Source: an uncultured Gammaproteobacteria bacterium
GTDB lineage: Bacteria; Pseudomonadota; Gammaproteobacteria; CAWJPQ01
Direction of reading: 5' to 3'
Length of the DNA: 64,000 bases
Assembly (NCBI GenBank): GCA_963844825.1
Contig: CAWJPQ010000003.1
Span: 10,088-74,087 of the forward strand
The position numbers were made by a program, and so were the translations under genes. Shown piece by piece: positions 746 to 28,361 of this stretch (the stretch's first letter is position 1; every line of letters starts with the position of its first letter). The notes below the pieces were generated by a model that saw only the letters and a list, made by a program, of their open reading frames with translations, was not told where the DNA came from and did not search any database.

Positions 746-3376
746 TCAATTCACCACATACGTCTTCGCCACATCGAAGGTGTTGCCCGTTGCCTGGTCC
801 CTCAGGGAGTACGCGGCCGTGAAACCGTTGTTCGGTTCAGGCTGACTCAGCGAAAAGAGAATGCCCGTCCCCTGGCCCGGCAACAGGTGCCCGCCGTTGT
901 TGAGCGTAGCTGGATCCGTGACCGTATTCAACACGGCGCTGCCGTCTGTCATCTGGTACCGGGTCAGATCGAACGACCGGTTGGAAAGGTTGTAGATGAA
1001 CAGACTGAACACGCTGCCCTTCTGGGCCATGCCGTTTATGACGGGGGCCACGGAGAAGGTGACCTTGCCGATGGCGGCGGAAAGATCGGGGGTCGCGTAG
1101 ACAGGGGCGAAGTTGCTCACCTGGGTCCCATCGACCGTGGCGGTGACCTTGATCGTGCCGGCGGAGTTGGTGGTCAACTTCACCGTCGCCACGCCGTTGG
1201 CGGTCACGGCCGAGGCGGCACTGAGCTGCCCGCTGCCTTGGTCAATGGAAAAATCCACCCGGGTACCGTCGGCGACGGCGCCTGAGGGCTCGGCGGGCTC
1301 GACGGTCACGGTGATCGTACTCTCATCGGTGCCGTCGGCGAGGATGACGTTGGGGCTCGCCGCCGCCACCAGGGAGACGGGGCTGTCGGGGTTGGCCGAG
1401 ACGCTCACCGTGGTGGTCCCCTGTATCGAACCCAGGGATGCGGTAATGCCGGACTGACCGACGCCGGTCCCCGTCACGGTGCCTGCATCGGCGGACGCGT
1501 TGCTGACCGATGCCACGGCGCTGTCCGAGGCGCTCCACGTCACCTGGGAGGTCAGGTCCTGCTGGGAATTGTCCGTGTAGGTCCCGACGGCGGACAGCTG
1601 CACCGCCGTGCCCTTGATGAGGCCGGGGTTCGAGGGGGTGACCTGGATGGCCGTCAGACGGGCATTGGTGACCGTCACGGCAGTGGATCCGCTGATGCTC
1701 CCGATCAGGGCCGTTACGGTGGCCGAGCCCGGGGCCAGCGTCACCGCCTGCCCCTGGGCGCCCGGGGCATTGCTCACGGTCACGACGGCGCTGTCGGAGG
1801 TCTGCCAGGTGACCTGACCGGTAATGTCCTGGGTGGTCGCGTCCGAATAATGACCCGTTGCCTTTAAAGAGACCCGCAGGCCTGCGGCGATGGACGGATC
1901 GGCCGGGGTCACGTCTATACTCTGCAGGGTCGCCGAGGTCACCGTGATGCGGCTCGTGCCGGTCTTCTGGCTCAGGGTCGCGCTGATCACCACACTGCCC
2001 GGCGCCTTTGCCTGGACCCGGCCCGCGTCGCCGGCGACATTACTCACCTGGGCAACCGTGGAATCGGTGGTGCCCCAGTTGACCTGACCGGTGAGATCCA
2101 GGGTCGAACCGTCGCTGTAATTGCCCGTGGCGGTCAAGGCCAGGGATGTGCCGTCAGCCAGCGCGTGGCTGGTGGGTGATACGTTGATCGACACCAGGGC
2201 GGCGCTGCTCACGCTCAAGGGCAAAGCGGCGGTCACCCCCGCCAAGGTCGCGCTGATGGCCGTGTTGCCCACCGCGAGCGCGTTCACCAGGCCGAATGAG
2301 CCCGAGGCATTGCCCACGGTCGCCACCGAGCCTTGCGAAGAGGCCCATGTGACCTGGTCCGTGATGTCCTGAATCGAACCGTCACTGAAGGTCCCCACCG
2401 CCGTGAGCTGCTCGTGCACACCCGCGGGGAGCACGCCCGTCACCGGCGTGATGCCGATGGCGGTGAGCACCGCCGGCGTGACGGTGACGGTGGTACTGCC
2501 GGTCATGCCGTTAAATACAGCCTTGATGGTGGCATTGCCGGCGGATTGGGACGCGACCAGACCGGCGTTGGCGCCGCCGTTGCTGACCGTGGCCACGCCC
2601 GCCGACGTGGAACTCCATGTGGCCACCCCCGTCAGGTCCTGGGTCGAGCCGTCGCTGAACACGCCGGTGGCGGTCAGCTGGGTGACGGTGCCGTCGGCGA
2701 TGGACGGGCTGGATGGCTCCACCCGGATGGCGGTCAGGGATGCATTGGTTACCGTCACCGCCGCGCTGCCCTGCACCTTGCCCATGGTCGCGGTAACAGT
2801 GGCCGACCCGGCGGCTGCACCGCTCAACAGTCCTGCCCCCGGGGTCACCGTGGCCACCGCCGTGTCGGACGACTGCCAGCTCACCTGGTCGGTCAGGTCC
2901 TGGTGCGTGCCGTCGGAGAAGCGGCCTGTCGCGGACAGCTGCACCTTGGTCCCGGCGGCGATGGCGGGCGACCCGGGGTTGATGTCGATGGCCACCAGGT
3001 TCGCATTGGTCACGGTCAGGGTGGTATTGGTCTTGATGCCGCCGACCGTTGCCGAGATGGTGGTCGGTCCGACCGCGACGGAGGTGACCGTTACGCCGGA
3101 GGCGCCGGCGCTGCCGATCGTGGCGACCTTGGTGTTCGATGAGTCCCATGTTGCCTTGGCGGTGAGATCCGCCTTGGAGTTGTCGCTGTAGATGCCCGTG
3201 ACCGCCAACTTTGTCGTGGTGCCGTCGGCGATGGACGGAGCGACCGGCGAGATCTGCATCTGCTGCAAAGACACGCCGCCCGCATTAGACGAGGTTGATG
3301 AGGCGCCGCCCCCGTTGCACCCTGCAACGGCCAATGCCACCGTCAGCACTAGTGCCGACGGGAATATGGCGCGCAT
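746..3376 (-). CDS. Surface lipoprotein with 7 tandem Big_2 Ig-like repeats, a Big_1-like domain and a C-terminal domain (LigA/LigB-like adhesin)
   Basis: Lipobox VAGC after MRAIFPSALVLTVALA; seven ~90 aa repeats with G.(F/Y)SD...D(L/I)T...W; ILADGTDESTITVTV Big_1-like segment. Confidence 0.8.
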   Translation of the reverse strand: MRAIFPSALVLTVALAVAGCNGGGASSTSSNAGGVSLQQMQISPVAPSIADGTTTKLAVTGIYSDNSKADLTAKATWDSSNTKVATIGSAGASGVTVTSVAVGPTTISATVGGIKTNTTLTVTNANLVAIDINPGSPAIAAGTKVQLSATGRFSDGTHQDLTDQVSWQSSDTAVATVTPGAGLLSGAAAGSATVTATMGKVQGSAAVTVTNASLTAIRVEPSSPSIADGTVTQLTATGVFSDGSTQDLTGVATWSSTSAGVATVSNGGANAGLVASQSAGNATIKAVFNGMTGSTTVTVTPAVLTAIGITPVTGVLPAGVHEQLTAVGTFSDGSIQDITDQVTWASSQGSVATVGNASGSFGLVNALAVGNTAISATLAGVTAALPLSVSSAALVSINVSPTSHALADGTSLALTATGNYSDGSTLDLTGQVNWGTTDSTVAQVSNVAGDAGRVQAKAPGSVVISATLSQKTGTSRITVTSATLQSIDVTPADPSIAAGLRVSLKATGHYSDATTQDITGQVTWQTSDSAVVTVSNAPGAQGQAVTLAPGSATVTALIGSISGSTAVTVTNARLTAIQVTPSNPGLIKGTAVQLSAVGTYTDNSQQDLTSQVTWSASDSAVASVSNASADAGTVTGTGVGQSGITASLGSIQGTTTVSVSANPDSPVSLVAAASPNVILADGTDESTITVTVEPAEPSGAVADGTRVDFSIDQGSGQLSAASAVTANGVATVKLTTNSAGTIKVTATVDGTQVSNFAPVYATPDLSAAIGKVTFSVAPVINGMAQKGSVFSLFIYNLSNRSFDLTRYQMTDGSAVLNTVTDPATLNNGGHLLPGQGTGILFSLSQPEPNNGFTAAYSLRDQATGNTFDVAKTYVVN

Positions 3377-3770
3377 AAACGACCATTCAAGCAACATGCG
3401 AAAACGCAATTTCATAGGCGTCGTGTGTCCCTTCATCATCACTGCTCGGCACCCCCAGCTATAGGATAATCGGCCAACGGCCATGGTCAGCGGTCACCCG
3501 GTCGCGGCGTTTCCACGCTGTATATATAGATCGGCGGAAGCTTATGCACCTTAAATGAAACCGCACAGCAGCCCCCCGAGCCGCCCCGCAAAGCCCTTCA
3601 GGGCCTGCCAACACCCCGCTGAGACCCCGCGCCGCCGCACGGATACCGGGACAAATCAGGCCTTGCTTATGCAGGCACGCCTGATATCGGGCAACCGGGG
3701 GCATGGATCCGATCGGCCAGAGCGGGGGGTTATCCATGTCCGGCGACGGGACTTTGCGAGCGTTTTAGAA

Positions 3771-3787
3771 CTGGCTGAATATTTGCA
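3771..3787 (+). promoter_or_regulatory. Candidate sigma54 -24/-12 promoter upstream of cyc2
   Basis: CTGGCTGAATATTTGCA = GG-N10-GC with TTGCA; imperfect TGGCAC half. Confidence 0.3.
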
Positions 3788-4085
3788 TCTTCAGCATCGC
3801 CATCGGATGCAATTAAAGCTTGTCCCTGCAAGGCCGATGTAATAGGGACAGCAAGGGGTCAGGTTTTCATTTGCAAGAGTGATCCGCGAAGGCAACGGGA
3901 CTGAAAGGCTATCGACTTGTTCGGCAGAGTCGTGGTCTTTTGGTTTGATTTTGCGGAAATAACATTGGCATCTTGTATGACTATGATCTTGGCATCAAAG
4001 GCGAACAGTAGTATGCTTCGTTTCGGCATTTGGGTCACAGACTTACGTGATCCTGGCTCGGACGCTAAACAAAGGAGGAAAGTGG

Positions 4086-5456
4086 ATGAAAAGAACTAAC
4101 TCATTACTCAGTCTTATAGGTAGTCTTCTTATAGGAACATTTGGATTACTACTTATCCCGCAACAAGCACAGGCGGTGCCGGCTTTCGCCCGCCAGATGG
4201 GAGTGTCGTGTAACACCTGTCACTTCCAGCACTTCCCCGAGCTGAATTCGTTCGGCCGGGCCTTCAAGGCGAGCGGTTTCACCATGACCGGCACGCCGAC
4301 CATCGACCAGGACGGCAACTTCTCGCTGCCCTCCAACCTGAACGCGGCGATCTTCACCAACCTGCGCTATCAGAAGAGCAACGGGACCGGTTCAGGCAGC
4401 ACCTCTACGGGGAAAACGACGAACAACGGGGCGTGGATCTTCCCCGGGGAGACCTCCCTGTTCGTCGGTGGCCGGGTCAGCCAGCACGTGGGCGCCCTGG
4501 TCGAGGGTGACGTAGGTGCCGGTGGAATCGGCGGCGGCGGCTTTCTCGCCAGCATCAAGGTTCCCATGGTCCACAAGATCGCCTCAACCCCTTTGACCGG
4601 TGACATCAATGGCGGTGTGGTGCCGTTCAGCGCGGGTCTGGGGCCGGCCTATGCCTTCGAGATCATGAACACCGGTGCGGTGGGTAACCACTTCATGAAC
4701 CTGGTGCACGTCAGCTCCATGTCGGCGATCCAGTTTGTCCAGACGGCAGGCATGAGCACGGGCGACACCAACGCTGAAGGCATCGGGGCATTCGCCGAGA
4801 GCAGCAACTTCTTCGTTACTGTGGCCGGATGGGATCCCAACCACAGCATCGCGGATATATCGGGCACCAGTTCATCCCCCAGCTCCCAATACGTGCGCGT
4901 TGCAGTAACGCCACAACTGGGGCGTTGGGATACCGGCTTCGGCTTTGCATGGTACGGCGGCCAGTCTGTCGTAGGGGACGGCGCTGTTACCAACGGTGTC
5001 TACAAGACCCATATGTGGGCCTTCGATGGCCAGATGCAGGGCAACCTCACCATGGGCGGCCGCCACATGCCGCTGGGCGTCTACGTGAGCTATGCCCAGG
5101 CACCGGGCTCCACGTCGACGGGAGGGCCGATGAACCTCTATAACACCGGCAGCCGAACCATGAGGTCCGGGTCCATCGCTGCGGAGCTGGGGGCCTTCGA
5201 CCAGGGCCGCAGCACCATCCAGGTGGGCTACCGCTGGGCTCAGACAGGCGCGACGACCCACAACATCGACAATGCCTACACGGTGGGACTCACCTATCTG
5301 CCGTGGGACAATGTCCAGTTCGCCGTGTATGAGACGATCTACAGCGGCAGCGCTCATGGTAATAACCCCAACAACGGGTATACCAACCTGGCTGACGCCG
5401 GTCTGGGCGGCTCAGGCCACTCTCTGACCTCTGTCAACCTGGCGGTAGGCTTCTGA
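4086..5456 (+). CDS. cyc2: Cyc2-family fused monoheme cytochrome c / porin (candidate Fe(II) oxidase)
   Basis: AAAGGAGG RBS; signal peptide ending AQA, then VPAFARQMGVSCNTCHFQHFPELNSFGRAFKASGF (Cyc2 N-terminal signature, one CxxCH); beta-barrel-like remainder ending in Phe. Confidence 0.85.
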   Translation: MKRTNSLLSLIGSLLIGTFGLLLIPQQAQAVPAFARQMGVSCNTCHFQHFPELNSFGRAFKASGFTMTGTPTIDQDGNFSLPSNLNAAIFTNLRYQKSNGTGSGSTSTGKTTNNGAWIFPGETSLFVGGRVSQHVGALVEGDVGAGGIGGGGFLASIKVPMVHKIASTPLTGDINGGVVPFSAGLGPAYAFEIMNTGAVGNHFMNLVHVSSMSAIQFVQTAGMSTGDTNAEGIGAFAESSNFFVTVAGWDPNHSIADISGTSSSPSSQYVRVAVTPQLGRWDTGFGFAWYGGQSVVGDGAVTNGVYKTHMWAFDGQMQGNLTMGGRHMPLGVYVSYAQAPGSTSTGGPMNLYNTGSRTMRSGSIAAELGAFDQGRSTIQVGYRWAQTGATTHNIDNAYTVGLTYLPWDNVQFAVYETIYSGSAHGNNPNNGYTNLADAGLGGSGHSLTSVNLAVGF

Positions 5457-5512: not shown

Positions 5513-5548
5513 AAAAAACCCCAGCCCTTTCGGGCTGGGGTTTTTTTT
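5513..5548. terminator. Bidirectional intrinsic terminator between cyc2 and sqr
   Basis: AAAAAACCCCAGCCC-TTTC-GGGCTGGGGTTTTTTTT hairpin with A and T tracts on either side. Confidence 0.9.
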
Positions 5549-7181: not shown

Positions 7182-7376
7182 CCTCCTCGCCCGTGGGGGA
7201 TTTATGCCCTTCCGGGTAGAAGGACAGGATGAGAGGATCAATAGATTGGCCGCACCTGGCTATCACCCCCTCACCCCAACCCTCCCGGTGGGAGAGGGAG
7301 GGAACAAGCCCCTCGCCCAAGCATGCCTTCCTGGGCGAAAACAATTTTCATGCTCCCGCTCGAGGGGAGAGGGAAC
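7182..7376. repeat. REP-like palindromic repeat cluster
   Basis: CCCCTCACCCCAACCCTCCC..GGGAGAGGG at 7266-7300; segment 7198-7238 closely matches 48644-48686. Confidence 0.7.
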
Positions 7377-7402
7377 GAATTTAGCCGGGGCACACCATTG
7401 TC

Positions 7403-8194
7403 ATGTTTTTTATCCTATCCAAGCTCGTCTGGGCCCTCATAGAGCCCACCAACCTGCTGATCCTCGGGTTCCTGACCGGCACACTGCTGCTGTGGCTCGG
7501 CAGGACCCGGGCGGCGCGCAACACCCTCGCCGTCACCAGCATCGTGCTGCTTACCGTCGTCCTGCTGCCGGTGGGCGATGCCCTGCTGATTCCCCTGGAG
7601 CAGCGCTTCCCGGCGCCCGAACTGCCCCCCCGGCTGGACGGCATCATCCTGCTCGGCGGCGCCCAGCGCCCGCTGCTCACCCGGGACTACCACCAGCCGG
7701 CCATGTCCGGCGCCGCCGAGACCATGACCACCTTCCTCGCCCTGGCCAGGGCCCACCCCGAGGCGCGGCTGGTGTTCGCGGGCGGGTCCGGCGACCCCCG
7801 CCACCAGGACGTCTCCGAGGCGGACACGGTGAGGCTGTTTCTGCGTCAGCAGGGCTTCGATCCGAACAGGCTGACCTACGAGCGCCGATCCCGCAATACC
7901 TATGAGAACGCCGCCTTCGCCAAGCGCCTGGTGACGCCCAAGCCGGGCCAGCAGTGGGTGCTGGTGACCACCGCCTACGGGATGCCCCGGGCCGTGGGGG
8001 TGTTTCGCGCCGCGGGCTGGCCGGTGATCCCCTACCCCTGCGACTACCGGGTGGGCCGGCACCTGCAACTGCTGCCCAGCCTCCTTATCGGCGATTCCCT
8101 GTCGACCCTGGCCATGGCCCTGCACGAATGGCTGGGGCTGACAGCCTATTACGTCACGGGCAAGACCAGCGCCCTGTTCCCGGGGCAGGGGTAG
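7403..8194 (+). CDS. YdcF/ElyC-like DUF218 membrane protein
   Basis: N-terminal TM helices, GIILLGG, SRNTYENA, VLVTTAYGMPRA, HEWLG motifs. Confidence 0.9.
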   Translation: MFFILSKLVWALIEPTNLLILGFLTGTLLLWLGRTRAARNTLAVTSIVLLTVVLLPVGDALLIPLEQRFPAPELPPRLDGIILLGGAQRPLLTRDYHQPAMSGAAETMTTFLALARAHPEARLVFAGGSGDPRHQDVSEADTVRLFLRQQGFDPNRLTYERRSRNTYENAAFAKRLVTPKPGQQWVLVTTAYGMPRAVGVFRAAGWPVIPYPCDYRVGRHLQLLPSLLIGDSLSTLAMALHEWLGLTAYYVTGKTSALFPGQG

Positions 8195-8241
8195 CGCCCG
8201 AGCCCCCATCCGTCGCGACGGACGCTGGTGACGGACACGGG

Positions 8242-9351
8242 CTACTCCAGCTTGTGCCGGAACAGCACCCCCGCCGCGGCCAGGGCGCACACGCCGATCA
8301 CGGCCATGGGCCAGAACTGCTGCCAGAGGGTGGCGAGGGGCAGATCCTCCAGGAAGATTCCCCGGACCACCACCAGGAAGTAGCGCATGGGGTTCAGATA
8401 GGTGATGTACTGAACCGCCATGGGCATGTTGGCGATGGGCGTGGCGAACCCCGACAGGATCACCGACGGAACCAGGAACACGAATGCGCCCAGCATGGCC
8501 TGCTGCTGGGTACTCACCAGCGAAGAGATCATCAGCCCCACCCCGATGGCCGACAGCAGGTACAGGGCGATGCCCAGGTACAGGACGGCGAGGCTGCCCA
8601 GCAGGGGGATGTGGAACCAGGTCACCGCCAGGACGATGATCACGCTGGCCTCGAACAGGCCGATGAGGAACGCCGGCAGGGTCTTGCCCAGCACGATCTC
8701 CAGGGGCCGCAGGGGCGTCACCTGGAGCTGATCGAAGGTCCCCAGCTCGCGCTCGCGGGCCACCGACAGGGCGGTCACCATCAGGCTCACCACCATGGTC
8801 AGCAGGGCGACGATGCCCGGCACGATGAACCAGCGGCTGGCCAGGTTGGGATTGAACCAGGCCCGGGTCTCCAGGTGGGACGGCAGGCCCGGCAGGCCGT
8901 GGCCCCGGGCCCATGCCTGATTGAAGGAAAAGATGATGTTGCGGGCGTAGTTGAGGATGATCAGGGCGGTGTTGGAATCACGCCCGTCGACGATGAGCTG
9001 GGCCCGGGCGGGACGGTGCACCCGGAGCCGGCGGGAGAACTGGGGCCCGATATGCAGGACCAGGGCGGCGCGCTTGGTGTCGATCATCCGGTCGATTTGA
9101 TCCTGATGCCTCAGGTCGGCGATCTTTTTGAAGACGCCGGTCCCCGTGAAGTGCGCCGTGAGCTGGCGGGAGGCGGCGCTGTTGTCCTCGTCGTATACCG
9201 CCAGGGCCACCTGGTTGAGGTCGAAGGTCGCCGCGTAACCGAAGATGATCACCTGCACCAGGGGCGGCACGATCAGCACCAAGCGGCTCTTCTTGTCCCG
9301 CCACAGGGAGAGGAACTCCTTGATCACCAGTGCCCGAATTCGTCCCCACAT
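8242..9351 (-). CDS. ybhR: ABC-2 transporter permease (YbhR-like)
   Basis: MWGRIRALVIKEF start, ARERELGTFDQLQVTP, SGFATPIANMP. Confidence 0.85.
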   Translation of the reverse strand: MWGRIRALVIKEFLSLWRDKKSRLVLIVPPLVQVIIFGYAATFDLNQVALAVYDEDNSAASRQLTAHFTGTGVFKKIADLRHQDQIDRMIDTKRAALVLHIGPQFSRRLRVHRPARAQLIVDGRDSNTALIILNYARNIIFSFNQAWARGHGLPGLPSHLETRAWFNPNLASRWFIVPGIVALLTMVVSLMVTALSVARERELGTFDQLQVTPLRPLEIVLGKTLPAFLIGLFEASVIIVLAVTWFHIPLLGSLAVLYLGIALYLLSAIGVGLMISSLVSTQQQAMLGAFVFLVPSVILSGFATPIANMPMAVQYITYLNPMRYFLVVVRGIFLEDLPLATLWQQFWPMAVIGVCALAAAGVLFRHKLE

Positions 9352-14623: not shown

Positions 14624-15886
14624 TCAGGTTACCGATGTCGTCGTGAACTCGGTCGACCGGCACGCCTCCTCATCCATGCACTGCTTGCACACCTCGATCC
14701 CGTTTTGAGAATGCTTGGCCTCGTACATGGAGATATCCGCGCAGCGCATGAGCATCTCCTCGCCCTTGCCGTGGAACGGGTAGGCGCTGATGCCCACGCT
14801 GCCCCCGATCTGCAGACGCAATCCATTGATCACAAAGGGGGTGCGCAGCTGACCGATGACCTTCTCGGCGATGTGCACGCCGCCCTTCACGTCCGAATCA
14901 AACAGCAGCAGCGCGAACTCGTCACCGCCCAGGCGGGCCACCGTATCGGACTCGCGTATCATCTTCTGCAGCCGGATCGCCACCTGCTGGATCAGCATAT
15001 CGCCCACCTGATGGCCGTGGGTATCGTTGACCTCCTTGAAGCGGTCCAGATCCACGAGCAGCAGACAGAAGGGCTTGGCGCTGCGCCGCGAGGAGATGAT
15101 CGCCTGGTGCAGGCGGTCATAGAAGTGGGTGCGATTGGACAGGCCCGTGAGCGGGTCGTGCAGGGCCTGATACTCCAACGCCTCGGCCAGGTCGACCAGA
15201 GAACGGCGCATGTACTCCAGGTCGACCGCAAGCTCATTGACCTCCCGGACATTGCTCCGGATGCCCAGGGAATGACTGAAGTGGCCGGAGGCGATCAGCC
15301 GTGACGCCTCCCTGACGCGGGTCAACGAGCGCGAGACCTGGCTCGTGACGAAACCCACCAGGATCAGGGTCAGCGCGATGTACGCAAACCCCAGGTAGAG
15401 GCCGCGCCGGTAGGCCTGAGCGATCTGATCACGGGTCGGCGCCTCCTCATAACCCAGATGAAGCTCCATCCCGTCCGCCCCGGCGCCCCTCAGGGGCACC
15501 GAGATGTAGTAGACGCCGTCGTTGCCCTGGCCGAAGAAAAAGTCTTCCCGGAATTGCGTATCCGGGGGCAAGGCCGGAGCGCCCAACAGGAGCCGGCCCT
15601 TGGCGTCGACGAGGCGCGCCGAGACCACCTGACCCGAGAAGACCGCCTCATTGAGAAGTTTTTGCGCATCGTGCGTCGTCATGGCCTCGCCCACCAGGCG
15701 CGAGAAGATATAGGCCTGGGTACGCACATTGTCGATGAACTGCGCCTCGTAGCCCCGCTTGACGATGTACAGGACGCTGCCGAACAGCAGCGGCAGCAAC
15801 AGGGCATGGACGGCCAGCATGCCGAGCACCATGCGCCCGCTGAATCTCGTTACCCAGTGCCGGATCAATTCACGTAGCCCGACCAT
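14624..15886 (-). CDS. Membrane diguanylate cyclase (2 TM, periplasmic domain, HAMP, GGDEF)
   Basis: HDPLTGLSNR, DLDRFKEVND, RESD I-site, RLGGDEF intact. Confidence 0.9.
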   Translation of the reverse strand: MVGLRELIRHWVTRFSGRMVLGMLAVHALLLPLLFGSVLYIVKRGYEAQFIDNVRTQAYIFSRLVGEAMTTHDAQKLLNEAVFSGQVVSARLVDAKGRLLLGAPALPPDTQFREDFFFGQGNDGVYYISVPLRGAGADGMELHLGYEEAPTRDQIAQAYRRGLYLGFAYIALTLILVGFVTSQVSRSLTRVREASRLIASGHFSHSLGIRSNVREVNELAVDLEYMRRSLVDLAEALEYQALHDPLTGLSNRTHFYDRLHQAIISSRRSAKPFCLLLVDLDRFKEVNDTHGHQVGDMLIQQVAIRLQKMIRESDTVARLGGDEFALLLFDSDVKGGVHIAEKVIGQLRTPFVINGLRLQIGGSVGISAYPFHGKGEEMLMRCADISMYEAKHSQNGIEVCKQCMDEEACRSTEFTTTSVT

Positions 15887-16323
15887 AGGACCTGCATGAT
15901 CTTCACGTTTTGATCCTCGGCGGTCTTCTTCCACATATAGGTGACGGTGCCGGACTCGGTTTTCAGCCTGTGCACCAGTGCGCTCAGGTTCGAGATGGTC
16001 TCGGGCCGCGCCCAGCCGTGACTGAACGCCTGGCTCACCAGGCGGCGCTGGTAGTGCCGCCACGACATGAACATCACCTTCTGCAAAAACACCTCTCTGA
16101 GCAGCGGGTCCGTCTCGTTCAGCACCGGCTGCAGCCGCACCCCGCCCTTCACCACGGGGGCGTCCATGAACAGGAACAGCACCTCGTCGTTGGACAGCTT
16201 CTCAATACCGCCGGCGGTGCCGCTGACCAACACCAGGGTCCTGTGTCTCTCATCCGCCCGGGCGCCGCTCACGGGCGCCATAAGCACGAGGATAAGCGCC
16301 AATAAACCGAGCACACGCCTCAT
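15865..16323 (-). CDS. Small periplasmic protein (substrate-binding-protein-like)
   Basis: Signal peptide ending ARA; ATG overlaps upstream stop (ATGA); overlaps the cyclase start. Confidence 0.65.
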   Translation of the reverse strand: MRRVLGLLALILVLMAPVSGARADERHRTLVLVSGTAGGIEKLSNDEVLFLFMDAPVVKGGVRLQPVLNETDPLLREVFLQKVMFMSWRHYQRRLVSQAFSHGWARPETISNLSALVHRLKTESGTVTYMWKKTAEDQNVKIMQVLWSGYVN

Positions 16324-25988: not shown

Positions 25989-26421
25989 ATGAACGAATTC
26001 ACTCCCCTGCTTTCAACGATTGGTGGCATTCTCATCGGGCTTGCCGTGGCGGGTCTGTTCTTCTTCAACGGCCGGATCCTGGGGATCAGCAACATCGCCG
26101 CGGAGCTGTTCGGATCCGATCATGCGGGCAGGCAATGGCGTTTTACGTTTATCCTGGGCCTGTTGGCCGGGGGTGGCCTGCTGGAGCTGTTTTACCCCGC
26201 CGCCCTGAGTGTCCCGAGCCCCCGTTCCATTCCGGTGTTGGTCCTGGCCGGCCTGCTGGTGGGCTACGGGACGGGAATGGGCCGGGGGTGCACCAGCGGT
26301 CACGGCATCTGCGGCATCAGCCGCCTGTCACCCCGGTCGATTGTCGCCACGCTTGGTCTTTATGGCCTCCGGCATGGTGACCGTGTACATCACCAACCAC
26401 CTGCTGGGGGGGAGCGCATGA
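25989..26421 (+). CDS. YeeE/YedE family sulfur-compound transporter subunit (PmpA/PmpB-like), 1-nt insertion near 26353
   Basis: NGRILGIS, GCTSGHGICGISRLSPRS; C-terminus (VFMASGMVTV) in shifted frame. Confidence 0.85.
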
Positions 26422-26894
26422 TGAGGCTGTTGACCGTCTTTCTGTCCGGCCTGCTGTTCTCCCTGGGGCTCGGCATCTCCGGGATGACCCAGCCCACCAA
26501 GGTCATCGGCTTTCTGGACATCTTCGGCCACTGGGATCCCAGCCTGGCCTGCGTCATGGCGGGCGCGGTGGGCGTCAACCTTATTCTGTACCGTTTGTCC
26601 ATCAAGCGCCTGCAGCCATTGTTCGCCCCGCAATTCACCGTCCCGTCCAAGCGCCCCATCAATGTGCCCCTGATCGCCGGGTCCGTGCTGTTCGGTGTCG
26701 GTTGGGGCTTGTCGGGCTACTGCCCGGGCCCGGCGCTGGTCTCCGCCGTCACCGGATGGGGTTCCGTGCTGGCCTTCGTAGGTGCCATGCTCGTGGGCAT
26801 GATCCTGTTTCAACGCCTGCAGGCAAGGCGCATCTACCCTGACCCCGCCAACAAGCCGGACATCGCCTCCACGTCGACTTCCGCCCGTCAATAG
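26418..26894 (+). CDS. YeeE/YedE family (DUF6691-like) transporter partner subunit
   Basis: GLGISGMTQPTKVIGFLD, WDPSL, GWGLSGYCPGPA; ATGA overlap with upstream gene. Confidence 0.85.
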   Translation: MMRLLTVFLSGLLFSLGLGISGMTQPTKVIGFLDIFGHWDPSLACVMAGAVGVNLILYRLSIKRLQPLFAPQFTVPSKRPINVPLIAGSVLFGVGWGLSGYCPGPALVSAVTGWGSVLAFVGAMLVGMILFQRLQARRIYPDPANKPDIASTSTSARQ

Positions 26895-26948: not shown

Positions 26949-28361
26949 TTAGCGCTCGTAGGCCAGTTCGTGGGGGAAGCGTCCTTCAGGGACCACGGTC
27001 CCCTCGCGGGCGGTCATCCACATGTTGTACAGCCACACCAGGTTGCCCGTGAACACCATGGTGCCACCGGCCCAGCGCCCGATCATGTAGGGATGCTCGG
27101 CCATGACGGTCTCGATGTAGGGCACCTCGTAGATCTTGGATGCACCCTGGATCAGGCCGGCGATGGTCATGGTCACCCAGTACGTGATGAAGCCGATCAG
27201 GACGAACCAGAAGTGGAAGTTTCCCAAGGCCAGAGAGTACAGCTTGCGGCGCATCATCTGCTGCAGGCCGAAGTACACCGCCGCGATCTCGATGTGCGAT
27301 GAAAAGCCCAGCAGCGCCAGGTGGGCGTGGGCCACAATCCAGCCGGTGCCGTGGATGTACCAGTTGATCGAACGGGTCTGCTGGAAGCCTCCCTGCATGT
27401 TCAGGGGCACGGCCATCAGTACGCCGACGATTACGAACTTCATCTCCAGGTTCTCCACGAACATGCTCCACTTGCCCTTGATGGTCAGCAGGATGTTCGC
27501 CACGAAGGCCACCGCCGGGATCAGGATCAGCACGCCCTCCACCGAAGCAAAGGACTTCAGCCACTCCGGCAGCGGCGCCGACATCAGGTGGTGCGCGGCG
27601 GGCGTGGAGTAGAAGGCGACGATCGCCCAGAAGTTCAGATGCGCTACGCGGTGGGAGTACAGCGGATTGCCCGTGAGCTTGGGGACCATGAAATAGGCGA
27701 TGCCGATGGCCACCGGCGTAATCCACAGCCCGAGGATGTTGTGGCCGTTCCACCAGGTCAGATAGGCCTCGGTCAGGCCGGTGAGGTGGAAGTACTCCGG
27801 TGACTGACCGACGGTGAACACCACCGCCAGCATGAAGATGCACGCGCCGAAGAACCAGTTGGTGATGTAGATACCCTGAGTACGTCGGTGGGCGATGGTC
27901 ATCCACACGTTGATGCCGAGGGGGAGCACAGCTAAGAAGGTAAAGGCCAGGTCGGCGGGCCAGATAAAGTCCGAGTATTCGCGTCCCGAGGTGAACCCCA
28001 GCCATAGCAAGACGCTGGCGACGGCCAGGCTGCCGTTCCATCCCATGGCGGTCCACAACCCGAGCTTTTCCGACCACAGCTTGGTGTTACCCAGGGCAGG
28101 CGTGATGTACATCATGGTCATGGCAAAGGCGCCGGAGATCCAGCCGAGGATCACAGCCATTACGTGGACCTGGCGCATGTGGCCAAATGAAAACATCTCC
28201 GACCCAGTGACGAAATCGGGAAAGGCCAGCTTGGCCGCATTGTACGATCCCAGCCCCGTGCCGACGATGAACCACAGGATCGCCGAGAAGCCGAACACGA
28301 TGGTCGCCGCCCCCGGCGGAATATCCTTATTTTTGGCAAAAAGGTATTTGATGACACTCAT
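26949..28361 (-). CDS. ccoN: Heme-copper oxidase subunit I, cbb3 (C-family) type, divergent and orphan
   Basis: ~12 TM; RQVH, GREY, WWNGHN, Y-x5-HH (YSTPAAHH), HAH: six His ligands plus helix VII Tyr. Confidence 0.85.
   Translation of the reverse strand: MSVIKYLFAKNKDIPPGAATIVFGFSAILWFIVGTGLGSYNAAKLAFPDFVTGSEMFSFGHMRQVHVMAVILGWISGAFAMTMMYITPALGNTKLWSEKLGLWTAMGWNGSLAVASVLLWLGFTSGREYSDFIWPADLAFTFLAVLPLGINVWMTIAHRRTQGIYITNWFFGACIFMLAVVFTVGQSPEYFHLTGLTEAYLTWWNGHNILGLWITPVAIGIAYFMVPKLTGNPLYSHRVAHLNFWAIVAFYSTPAAHHLMSAPLPEWLKSFASVEGVLILIPAVAFVANILLTIKGKWSMFVENLEMKFVIVGVLMAVPLNMQGGFQQTRSINWYIHGTGWIVAHAHLALLGFSSHIEIAAVYFGLQQMMRRKLYSLALGNFHFWFVLIGFITYWVTMTIAGLIQGASKIYEVPYIETVMAEHPYMIGRWAGGTMVFTGNLVWLYNMWMTAREGTVVPEGRFPHELAYER

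Follow-up and report, generated by a model that had tools for sequence, protein, structure and literature searches.

The stretch of DNA analyzed here (the window, 64,000 nt; C3:10088-74087) belongs to a 3.1-Mb, 14-contig, 79%-complete genome (G000) of an uncultured gammaproteobacterium. The gene under study is its forward-strand open reading frame (ORF) 4086-5456 (456 codons and the stop), which encodes the 456-aa protein P0001. With a signal peptide, one heme motif after AXPXFARQ and a 16-strand barrel, P0001 bears out the Cyc2 architecture proposed in a first-pass annotation of this DNA and is very probably a cytochrome-porin of the Cyc2 superfamily. The cyc2 gene is used as a metagenome marker for iron oxidation; P0001 fits the architecture yet falls outside the cluster that has been functionally tested, so reading “iron oxidizer” from the motif alone would be an overreach. 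The features of the window are listed in Table 1.

Table 1. Features of the window, in window coordinates
Feature	Position	Strand	Basis or remark
Big_2 x7 + Big_1/invasin protein, 912 aa	746-3484	-	upstream of the cyc2-like gene; position kept in congener
Two overlapping sigma-70-like promoter matches	3959..4017 (3959-3987, 3989-4017)	+	consensus matches only
Shine-Dalgarno AAGGAGG	4072..4078	+	7 nt before ATG at 4086; read from sequence
Cyc2-like fused monoheme cytochrome c / 16-strand porin, 456 aa	4086..5456	+	motif, homology, fold
Predicted signal peptide, residues 1-30, ends AQA	4086..4175	+	read from translation
Cytochrome motif, residues 30-53: AXPXFARQ-M, 3 residues, CNTCH, 4 residues, PEL	4173..4244	+	
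Beta-barrel, residues about 72-456, 16 long strands, C-terminal Phe	4299..5453	+	DSSP on model; Foldseek; VIA-align
Terminator-like hairpin then T run	5523..5542	+	67 nt past stop
SQR-like flavoprotein (Pyr_redox_2), 423 aa	5641-6912	-	converging on the cyc2-like gene
Lipoprotein, PqiC/PelC/LptE-like N-domain + C-terminal PEGA domain, 321 aa	13488..14453	-	
GGDEF protein	14624-16063	-	adjoins the lipoprotein gene
DUF6691/Sulf_transp membrane protein	25989-26894	+	next to COX1-family subunit
COX1-family oxidase subunit	26949-28361	-	adjoining ORFs without CXXCH

The ORF is a real gene, beyond chance because 379 homologous proteins were matched at E ≤ 0.001 in a word-indexed search (best non-self match 73% identity, E 4e-215), together with 2132 cluster representatives at the same threshold (361 at ≤ 1e-10 and 95 at ≤ 1e-30). 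Since it has its own Shine-Dalgarno sequence, promoter-like sites and a terminator-like hairpin, the gene looks like a single-gene unit. Two promoter-like matches were found against 0.7 ± 0.9 expected in shuffles; the two terminator-like hairpins, against 2.0 ± 1.3 expected, are alone not above chance. GC content at third codon positions (GC3) is 0.76 in the cyc2-like gene and 0.82-0.92 in its neighbours. As a sign of transfer this was rejected as not diagnostic, since other genes of the window also reach 0.70-0.76.

The guess that such a protein would be annotated as hypothetical proved right: a scan of P0001 against Pfam-A and NCBIfam gave no family even at E ≤ 10, and every source-given name among the matches of the 379-protein search was “hypothetical protein”. 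A PDB sequence search returned a single irrelevant match (E 0.039). One homologue carried a precomputed Porin_4 match, and the neighbours of P0001 in the ESM Atlas were automatically named cytochrome c clusters; the closest neighbour cluster to which a Pfam family is attached has Porin_O_P on 20% of its members. A literature search for the motif text gave nothing useful.

Heme motif and barrel fold

Cyc2 has been defined by a signal peptide, one CXXCH with AXPXFAR[Q/K][T/Y] upstream and PXL four residues downstream, the consensus differing between clusters, and by a 16-strand OprO/P-like barrel in a protein of at least 365 aa (Keffer et al. 2021, PMC8406198; here and below, statements credited to PMC8406198, PMC10734462, PMC9769843 and PMC13692758 follow excerpts of those papers). 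The stretch quoted in the first-pass annotation, AVPAFARQMGVSCNTCHFQHFPELNSFGRAFKASGF, corresponds to residues 30-65 of P0001, and the motif at the signal cleavage site, the single heme motif and the terminal Phe described there are all present in the ORF. Read from the translation, the leader is basic (K/R), continues into a hydrophobic run and ends in AQA before Val31. In the AlphaFold2 model this region forms a helix at 6-21, with a predicted local distance difference test (pLDDT) score below 50 at 24-30. AVPAFARQ occupies residues 30-37, the sole CXXCH is CNTCH at residues 42-46, the length exceeds the published minimum, and the protein ends in ...LAVGF.

Conservation is concentrated on this motif. 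Across 133 homologues sharing <70% identity (alignment A1), P32, F34, A35, R36, Q37, C42, C45 and H46 are invariant at a mean column identity of 22%. Exactly one CXXCH was present in 262 of the 268 proteins P0001-P0268, and 206 of the 268 end in F. PxFAR[QK] was found within the first 150 residues of 220 of these proteins, followed by T (121), M (71), V (18), I (6), L (3) or A (1); CXXCH stands three residues further on in 220/220, and PxL follows after four residues in 204/220.

The AlphaFold2 model of P0001, for which A1 was the input, had a mean pLDDT of 88.9 and a predicted TM-score (pTM) of 0.87. DSSP assigns 16 long strands to it, spanning residues 87-455, so what had been described from the letters as a porin-like body is confidently predicted as a 16-strand barrel. 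Foldseek matched the model to porins at E about 1e-8 to 1e-7, among them PorB, OmpT and MOMP as well as OprP (rank 6) and OprO (rank 9). VIA-align to 16-strand porins gave Z scores of 22.8 (OprB), 21.5 (OprO) and 21.4 (OprP), with 290-313 residues aligned at 3.0-3.6 Å and 8-13% identity among the top rows. OprO/OprP, OprB and the general 16-strand porins thus share the barrel fold with P0001 but are without its heme-binding N-terminal segment.

Placement among Cyc2 types

When the A1 profile was searched against 400 genomes of the host's class, 64 were matched, with a full-length match in only nine (G000, G001, G035, G073, G137, G266, G269, G345 and G397). Nearly all remaining matches covered profile positions about 5-150, that is, the cytochrome part, in agreement with the porin part of Cyc2 being poorly conserved (PMC8406198). 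G195 additionally holds a copy with three in-frame stops (G195:C52:43751-44980; two TAG and one TAA), and another homologue of the query clade (G536:C110:1022-2242) has one in-frame TAA with the adjacent lipoprotein gene still in place; these copies may be pseudogenes or assembly errors. The ORFs were assigned to five motif types: A, the type of the query (CH-FQHF-PxLN); B (FARQTG..C..CHTVFPELT); C (FARKY, about 400 aa); D (FARQY..C.TCH-AAF-PRLNSFG); and E (FARK, about 510 aa).

A search with a type D ORF gave 1153 matches, and the best 120 of these, at 64-100% identity, included a protein of a Gallionellaceae metagenome-assembled genome (MAG; P0368), Steroidobacter denitrificans, and MAGs labelled Acidiferrobacterales, Chromatiales and Burkholderiales. 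We take type D as a probable cluster 1-like anchor, because a cluster 1 copy is present in all iron-oxidizing Gallionellaceae that have cyc2 (Hoover et al. 2023, PMC10734462) and cluster 1 consists of short branches across distant taxa (Keffer et al., PMC8406198). The anchor consisted of the one named protein P0368 and its 64-80%-identical relatives, and the trees are without named Cyc2 of A. ferrooxidans, Leptospirillum, Zetaproteobacteria or Chlorobi. The Gallionellaceae-anchored clade has the motif FARQY...CH[ADS]A[FY]P[RK]LN, and its members are 55-73% identical to the anchor over their full length. A BLASTP alignment of P0001 with P0368 covered 157 N-terminal residues at 31% identity (E 2e-16) and had a gap of one residue after CH; close full-length similarity to cluster 1 members was not found. 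An hhalign comparison of A1 with 25 Gallionellaceae-type sequences (A3) gave a probability of 99.0 and an E of 4e-18 over 191 columns, the match ending at query residue 226. By these alignments P0001 is homologous to the Gallionellaceae-anchored set, but distantly.

For loci L029-L103, the Cyc2-like ORF was pulled by pattern from 58 of 75 loci, leaving 17 loci outside the trees (L031, L032, L034, L041, L043, L059, L060, L074-L076, L078, L080, L083, L088 and L098-L100); ORFs of <380 aa were left out of the 120-row tree. FastTree (120 rows) resolved five groups with support 99-100, the query group holding 57 rows (support 99), and IQ-TREE (55 rows, LG+C20) gave the same five groups with support 98-100 and a query group of 20 rows (support 98). 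The Gallionellaceae-anchored clade (23 rows and support 100 in the 120-row tree) excludes P0001 in both, and type B is sister to the query group (support 95 and 97 in the 120- and 55-row trees, respectively), which stands apart from C, D and E. Constraining A and D to one group (25 rows, LG+G4) lowered the log-likelihood by 20.7, with p-AU 0.002 in the approximately unbiased (AU) test, the group having been named after the tree was seen. P0001 is accordingly placed by its sequence in a distinct, well-supported clade (CH-FQHF-PxL), outside the Gallionellaceae/Zetaproteobacteria-type cluster 1. The first-pass annotation had likened the CHFQHFP variant to cluster 1 and called the protein neutrophile-type; the phylogeny supports neither claim.

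Cluster 1 Cyc2 proteins (Mariprofundus Cyc2PV-1, Gallionellaceae Cyc2 and Ghiorsea Cyc2TAG1_1) likewise have a signal peptide, AXPXFARQ, one CXXCH and PxLNxFG, and also a fused 16-strand barrel in about 430-460 aa; homology with P0001 extends over roughly the first 200 residues. They have Y after FARQ, whereas P0001 has Met, and its spacing from the heme His to PxL is longer by one residue. The two sets also differ in their candidate heme ligands. H43, M182, M386 and H411 are all invariant in A3, and M182, M386 and H411 of this anchor set have no counterpart in the query clade: A1 has H46 at 100%, H49 at 70%, no further His or Met conserved at ≥60%, and K61 at 91%. The sixth (distal) heme ligand of the query clade is not obvious from its conserved residues. 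In the tested Ghiorsea cluster 1 protein the heme is low-spin, and His or Met serve as its two axial ligands (PMC13692758).

The sister clade in both trees is the Ralstonia/Caballeronia/Paraburkholderia/Acidiphilium type (...FARQTG..C..CHTVFPELT), which has the same architecture, but its motif after CH differs and its C-terminus is W-x-M-W, against G-F in P0001. Type B was found on plasmid records, 15 in all (Ralstonia 6, Caballeronia 2, Acidiphilium 2 and five more genera with 1 each), and only 5 of these matched P0001 by tblastn, over the N-terminal 10-25% of its length. Ralstonia/Caballeronia/Acidiphilium-type taxa have been networked with Acidithiobacillus Cyc2 (PMC10654088). Cluster 3 Cyc2 (Leptospirillum Cyt572 and Ca. 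Tenderia electrophaga) are fused cytochrome-porins like P0001, the Ca. Tenderia protein having been assigned to cluster III (PMC9769843).

The query clade is patchily spread over phyla. The rows nearest to P0001 are MAGs labelled Gammaproteobacteria and Chromatiaceae, and the other labels among the 28 named loci of the clade are Rhodocyclaceae, Sulfurisoma, Acidiferrobacterales, Deltaproteobacteria (11/28), Thermodesulfobacteriota (3/28) and Sericytochromatia.

A lipoprotein gene linked to the clade

The most novel result is the linkage of this clade to a lipoprotein gene. A lipoprotein of about 300 aa recurs among the clustered ORFs around cyc2-like homologues; its gene lies 8 kb from the cyc2-like gene in the window and is the usual neighbour in related loci. 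By tblastn, the lipoprotein was found within the flanks of 20 of the 28 named loci. In 13 loci it is the next gene downstream on the same strand, 12 of them with an ORF gap of 32-206 nt; in L009, where no cyc2 ORF was called, the cyc2 and lipoprotein matches are 180 nt apart. In 7 further loci it is 1-4.3 kb from the cyc2-like gene, and of the 8 loci without it, 3 stop within 0.9 kb of that gene.

In the genome samples this linkage runs one way. Among 301 genomes from the phylum of one deltaproteobacterial locus, nine have full-length members of the query clade, and the lipoprotein is present in seven of the nine, always adjacent and on the same strand, and in none of the 292 genomes without the clade. 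In the class sample, the full-length lipoprotein was found only in G000 and G001, of the nine genomes with the clade; the other 391 genomes, which include the unpublished G040 and G141, gave 26 partial profile matches, mostly generic PEGA, and no full-length one. Both samples pooled, the lipoprotein is present in 9/18 genomes with the clade and 0/683 others. It occurs only where the clade is present, and the clade can do without it. No statistic was attached to this linkage because related genomes are not independent. Among the sampled genomes, a dedicated lipoprotein gene was found only with the query clade, with none in the anchor-type genomes G075, G276, G192 and G350, and no description of such linkage was seen in a search of the literature on Cyc2 with a PEGA domain, lipoprotein or porin-cytochrome. 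The strict one-way association provides a testable handle on the assembly or working of the fused cytochrome-porin.

The lipoprotein has a conserved lipobox (G-C-[SA]-G-P), and 13 of 14 members have the PEGA domain; weak family matches were to Lipoprotein_16 (5/14 members) and LptE (2/14). Its model (pLDDT 85.1) has an alpha/beta lipoprotein fold and a transthyretin-like C-domain. Z scores for the N-domain were 16.0 with XCC0632/DUF330, 12.4 with CsgG, 12.1 with PqiC, 11.5 with PelC and 9.3-9.8 with LptE. The fold is shared with the lipoproteins of LptD-LptE, PelB-PelC and the PqiC rings, likewise encoded beside a barrel gene, but LptE, PelC and PqiC are without the extra PEGA domain, and the likeness is one of fold only, with no family membership claimed. 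Because the fold resembles that of lipoproteins ringing or plugging outer-membrane barrels, we hypothesize that this protein, encoded directly downstream in most clade genomes, would be a structural or assembly partner of the Cyc2-like protein. A predicted complex of mature Cyc2-like protein, lipoprotein and heme scored 0.00 and speaks neither for nor against binding.

Other genes recur at these loci. Beside the cyc2-lipoprotein pair, 8 loci have a response regulator with HD_5 and 6 have a PAS/HAMP histidine kinase (L005-L008, L010, L016, L020, L021 and L023), and with the GGDEF protein of the window these regulators and kinases form a cyclic di-GMP (c-di-GMP) theme. In the Rhodocyclaceae-type loci L005, L006, L016, L021 and L023, the cyc2-like and lipoprotein genes are separated by a member of a Pfam-less ORF family (258-342 aa) on the opposite strand, and a second unmatched family (205-239 aa) occupies the same interval in L005 and L023.

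Proposed function and host context

We hypothesize that P0001 is an outer-membrane protein of the Cyc2 superfamily in which, after cleavage of the signal peptide, a short N-terminal segment with one covalent c-type heme would be fused to a 16-strand porin barrel. The single heme, in or at the barrel, would carry electrons singly across the outer membrane, exchanging them between dissolved redox species outside the cell and soluble carriers in the periplasm. The direction would most likely be inward and the donor most likely Fe(II), because the genome encodes RuBisCO (5 matches, 3-4 loci) and heme-copper oxidases (COX1 family; 6 matches, 3-4 loci), while dsrA, SoxB, narG and a photosynthetic reaction center (Photo_RC) were not found in its 79%-complete sequence; NiFe-hydrogenase-like matches were weak. 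An iron-oxidizing or broader electron-uptake role would fit this gene content. Taken whole, a Cyc2-like conduit of a distinct clade that carries electrons inward from Fe(II) with a lipoprotein partner is the explanation we narrowly favor, and Fe(II) oxidation by P0001 in vivo, judged on its own, is plausible though somewhat doubtful.

Several observations weigh against this explanation. As read from the translation, P0001 fits the published motif save for two details: Met38 stands where PXFAR[Q/K][T/Y], the screen behind the published Cyc2 tree (PMC8406198), needs T or Y, and the Pro of PEL is the fifth residue after His46 instead of the fourth as in the Gallionellaceae-type set. Because Met38 would drop it by the letter of that screen, P0001 is called Cyc2-like here, and since the Met variant (71/220 members) fails the screen, part of the clade may be missing from reference trees. 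Besides the CXXCH His, the query clade is without a Met or other His conserved >70%; given the missing Met and second His, its heme ligation, and so its potential, may differ from that of the anchor type. Function has been confidently generalized for one cluster only (PMC8406198), and P0001 is outside it. All 28 named loci of the clade come from MAGs, so no known physiology stands behind the Fe(II) role, and 14 of the 28 are labelled Deltaproteobacteria or Thermodesulfobacteriota, a misfit with purely microaerophilic iron oxidation. Seven of the nine gammaproteobacterial genomes with the clade are without the lipoprotein. The recurrent neighbour families hold no CXXCH, and no cytochrome or other electron carrier recurs among them. 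The pathways missing from G000 are not shown to be absent, because the genome is 79% complete, and the RNA-library contigs described below are evidence of presence in libraries and no proof of transcription.

The spread into deltaproteobacterial labels would suit an outer-membrane protein that is no iron oxidase but a redox conduit of general use or a redox sensor, passing electrons out to Fe(III), humics or partner cells in anaerobes, or reporting external redox state to c-di-GMP signalling, and doing likewise in the present host. Heme ligands unlike those of the anchor clade, the regulators and kinases beside the pair, the GGDEF gene adjoining the lipoprotein gene in the window and the statement that Cyc2 may serve other functions (PMC8406198) agree with such a role. 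The regulators are, however, found in a minority of loci, and a single heme in a 16-strand barrel is the layout reported to oxidize dissolved Fe(II) in three Cyc2 homologues that were tested (PMC8406198) and in a fourth (PMC13692758). The host, moreover, has RuBisCO and oxidases with no other lithotrophic pathway found, and we regard a conduit or sensor of this kind as rather unlikely. We give about the same limited credence to a bolder proposal, in which the CH-FQHF-PxL clade and the PEGA lipoprotein would form an undescribed two-part outer-membrane redox module, with a heme ligated unlike that of tested Cyc2, for extracellular electron exchange in Desulfobacterota-like anaerobes and in this autotrophic lineage; the host lineage, two species without a cultured relative, would then be an unrecognized iron- or electron-oxidizing autotroph of marsh and other sediments.

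Other explanations are far less probable. A protein whose barrel resembles general and phosphate porins, and one homologue of which matches Porin_4, could be an ordinary porin with a heme-free N-terminal CXXCH, or a heme or iron uptake channel; this is very improbable given the invariance of the P-F-A-R-Q and heme motif residues at such low overall identity, and the near-constant single CXXCH. A sulfur-linked role, in which the cytochrome-porin works with the SQR-like flavoprotein in sulfide or polysulfide oxidation, would account for a gene that lies 185 nt beyond the stop and for the Sulf_transp/DUF6691 protein in the window, but is just as improbable: the two genes converge and are therefore no operon, the SQR of the window has no match in the three closest loci (L001, L002 and L003; tblastn, E ≤ 1e-10), and its family was confined to G000 in the neighbour clustering. 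The case for the sulfur-oxidizing backbone described in the first-pass annotation is weak: only the SQR-like flavoprotein and the sulfur-transport-family protein speak for it, SoxB and DsrA were not found in the 79%-complete genome, and the congener lacks the SQR gene at this place. Least probable of all is a cluster 1 (neutrophile-type) iron oxidase gained laterally by a sulfur oxidizer from Gallionellaceae or Zetaproteobacteria. The shared AXPXFARQ...CXXCH...PxLNxFG pattern and architecture, and the LN, not LT, after the proline of PxL as in the Gallionellaceae-type, would suit it. Against it stand the exclusion from the anchored clade in both trees, the cost of the A + D constraint, the contrast between 31% identity over 157 residues and the full-length identities within the anchor clade, and the presence of the gene at the same place in the congener. 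The query clade is uncharacterized, and neither a sulfur link nor a likeness to cluster 1 is supported for it.

Parts of the window occur in 20 sequencing runs from 16 studies, and four of these runs were examined along it; for habitat, the other runs, with only small shares of it, were set aside. A sediment DNA run covers 30/30 bins and may be the source sample. Contigs covering the ORF came from three metatranscriptomic libraries of two studies (two sediment runs and one salt-marsh run), at 4054-4430 (8 differences), 4438-4595 (0), 4590-5077 (12) and 5196-5392 (5), that is, with 0-12 differences per 158-488 nt. The cyc2-like gene is probably expressed. The RNA libraries give no cover at 2500-4051 and 7350-8300, both of which the DNA run covers; this does not count as evidence. 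RNA-library contigs of 90-95% identity pile up on the SQR-like gene and probably represent the sqr of other organisms.

The genus and family of the host are common to one other species, and its remaining relatives share the same class. Its PurA is 82-83% identical to three metagenome proteins and 73-75% identical to proteins of gammaproteobacterial MAGs, Ca. Tenderia electrophaga and an Ectothiorhodospiraceae bacterium; Ca. Tenderia electrophaga, at 73%, is among the nearest named relatives. The gene order in the congener is Big_2 protein, cyc2-like gene, DUF218, lipoprotein (-) and purA (-), so the cyc2-like gene is syntenic; the SQR-like, ABC-2 transporter and GGDEF genes are at this locus in G000 only.

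Elsewhere in G000, a RuBisCO large-subunit match (G000:C11:503269-504196) is split over two frames and a COX1 match (G000:C9:231786-233039) holds TGA and TAA; these may be frameshifts or MAG assembly errors. Contig C2 carries adjacent ORFs with 21, 13, 6 and 15 CXXCH (G000:C2:231500-237100; L104 5547-11043), of the Cytochrome_C7/c3 families. The ORFs with 6 and 15 CXXCH adjoin each other, possibly as parts of a single gene, and the cluster is followed by a 570-aa ORF (L104 12081-13793) with an N-terminal TPR and a Phe end. The heme counts recall the PCC3 porin-cytochrome clusters of Gallionellaceae (PMC10734462), a likeness by counts only.

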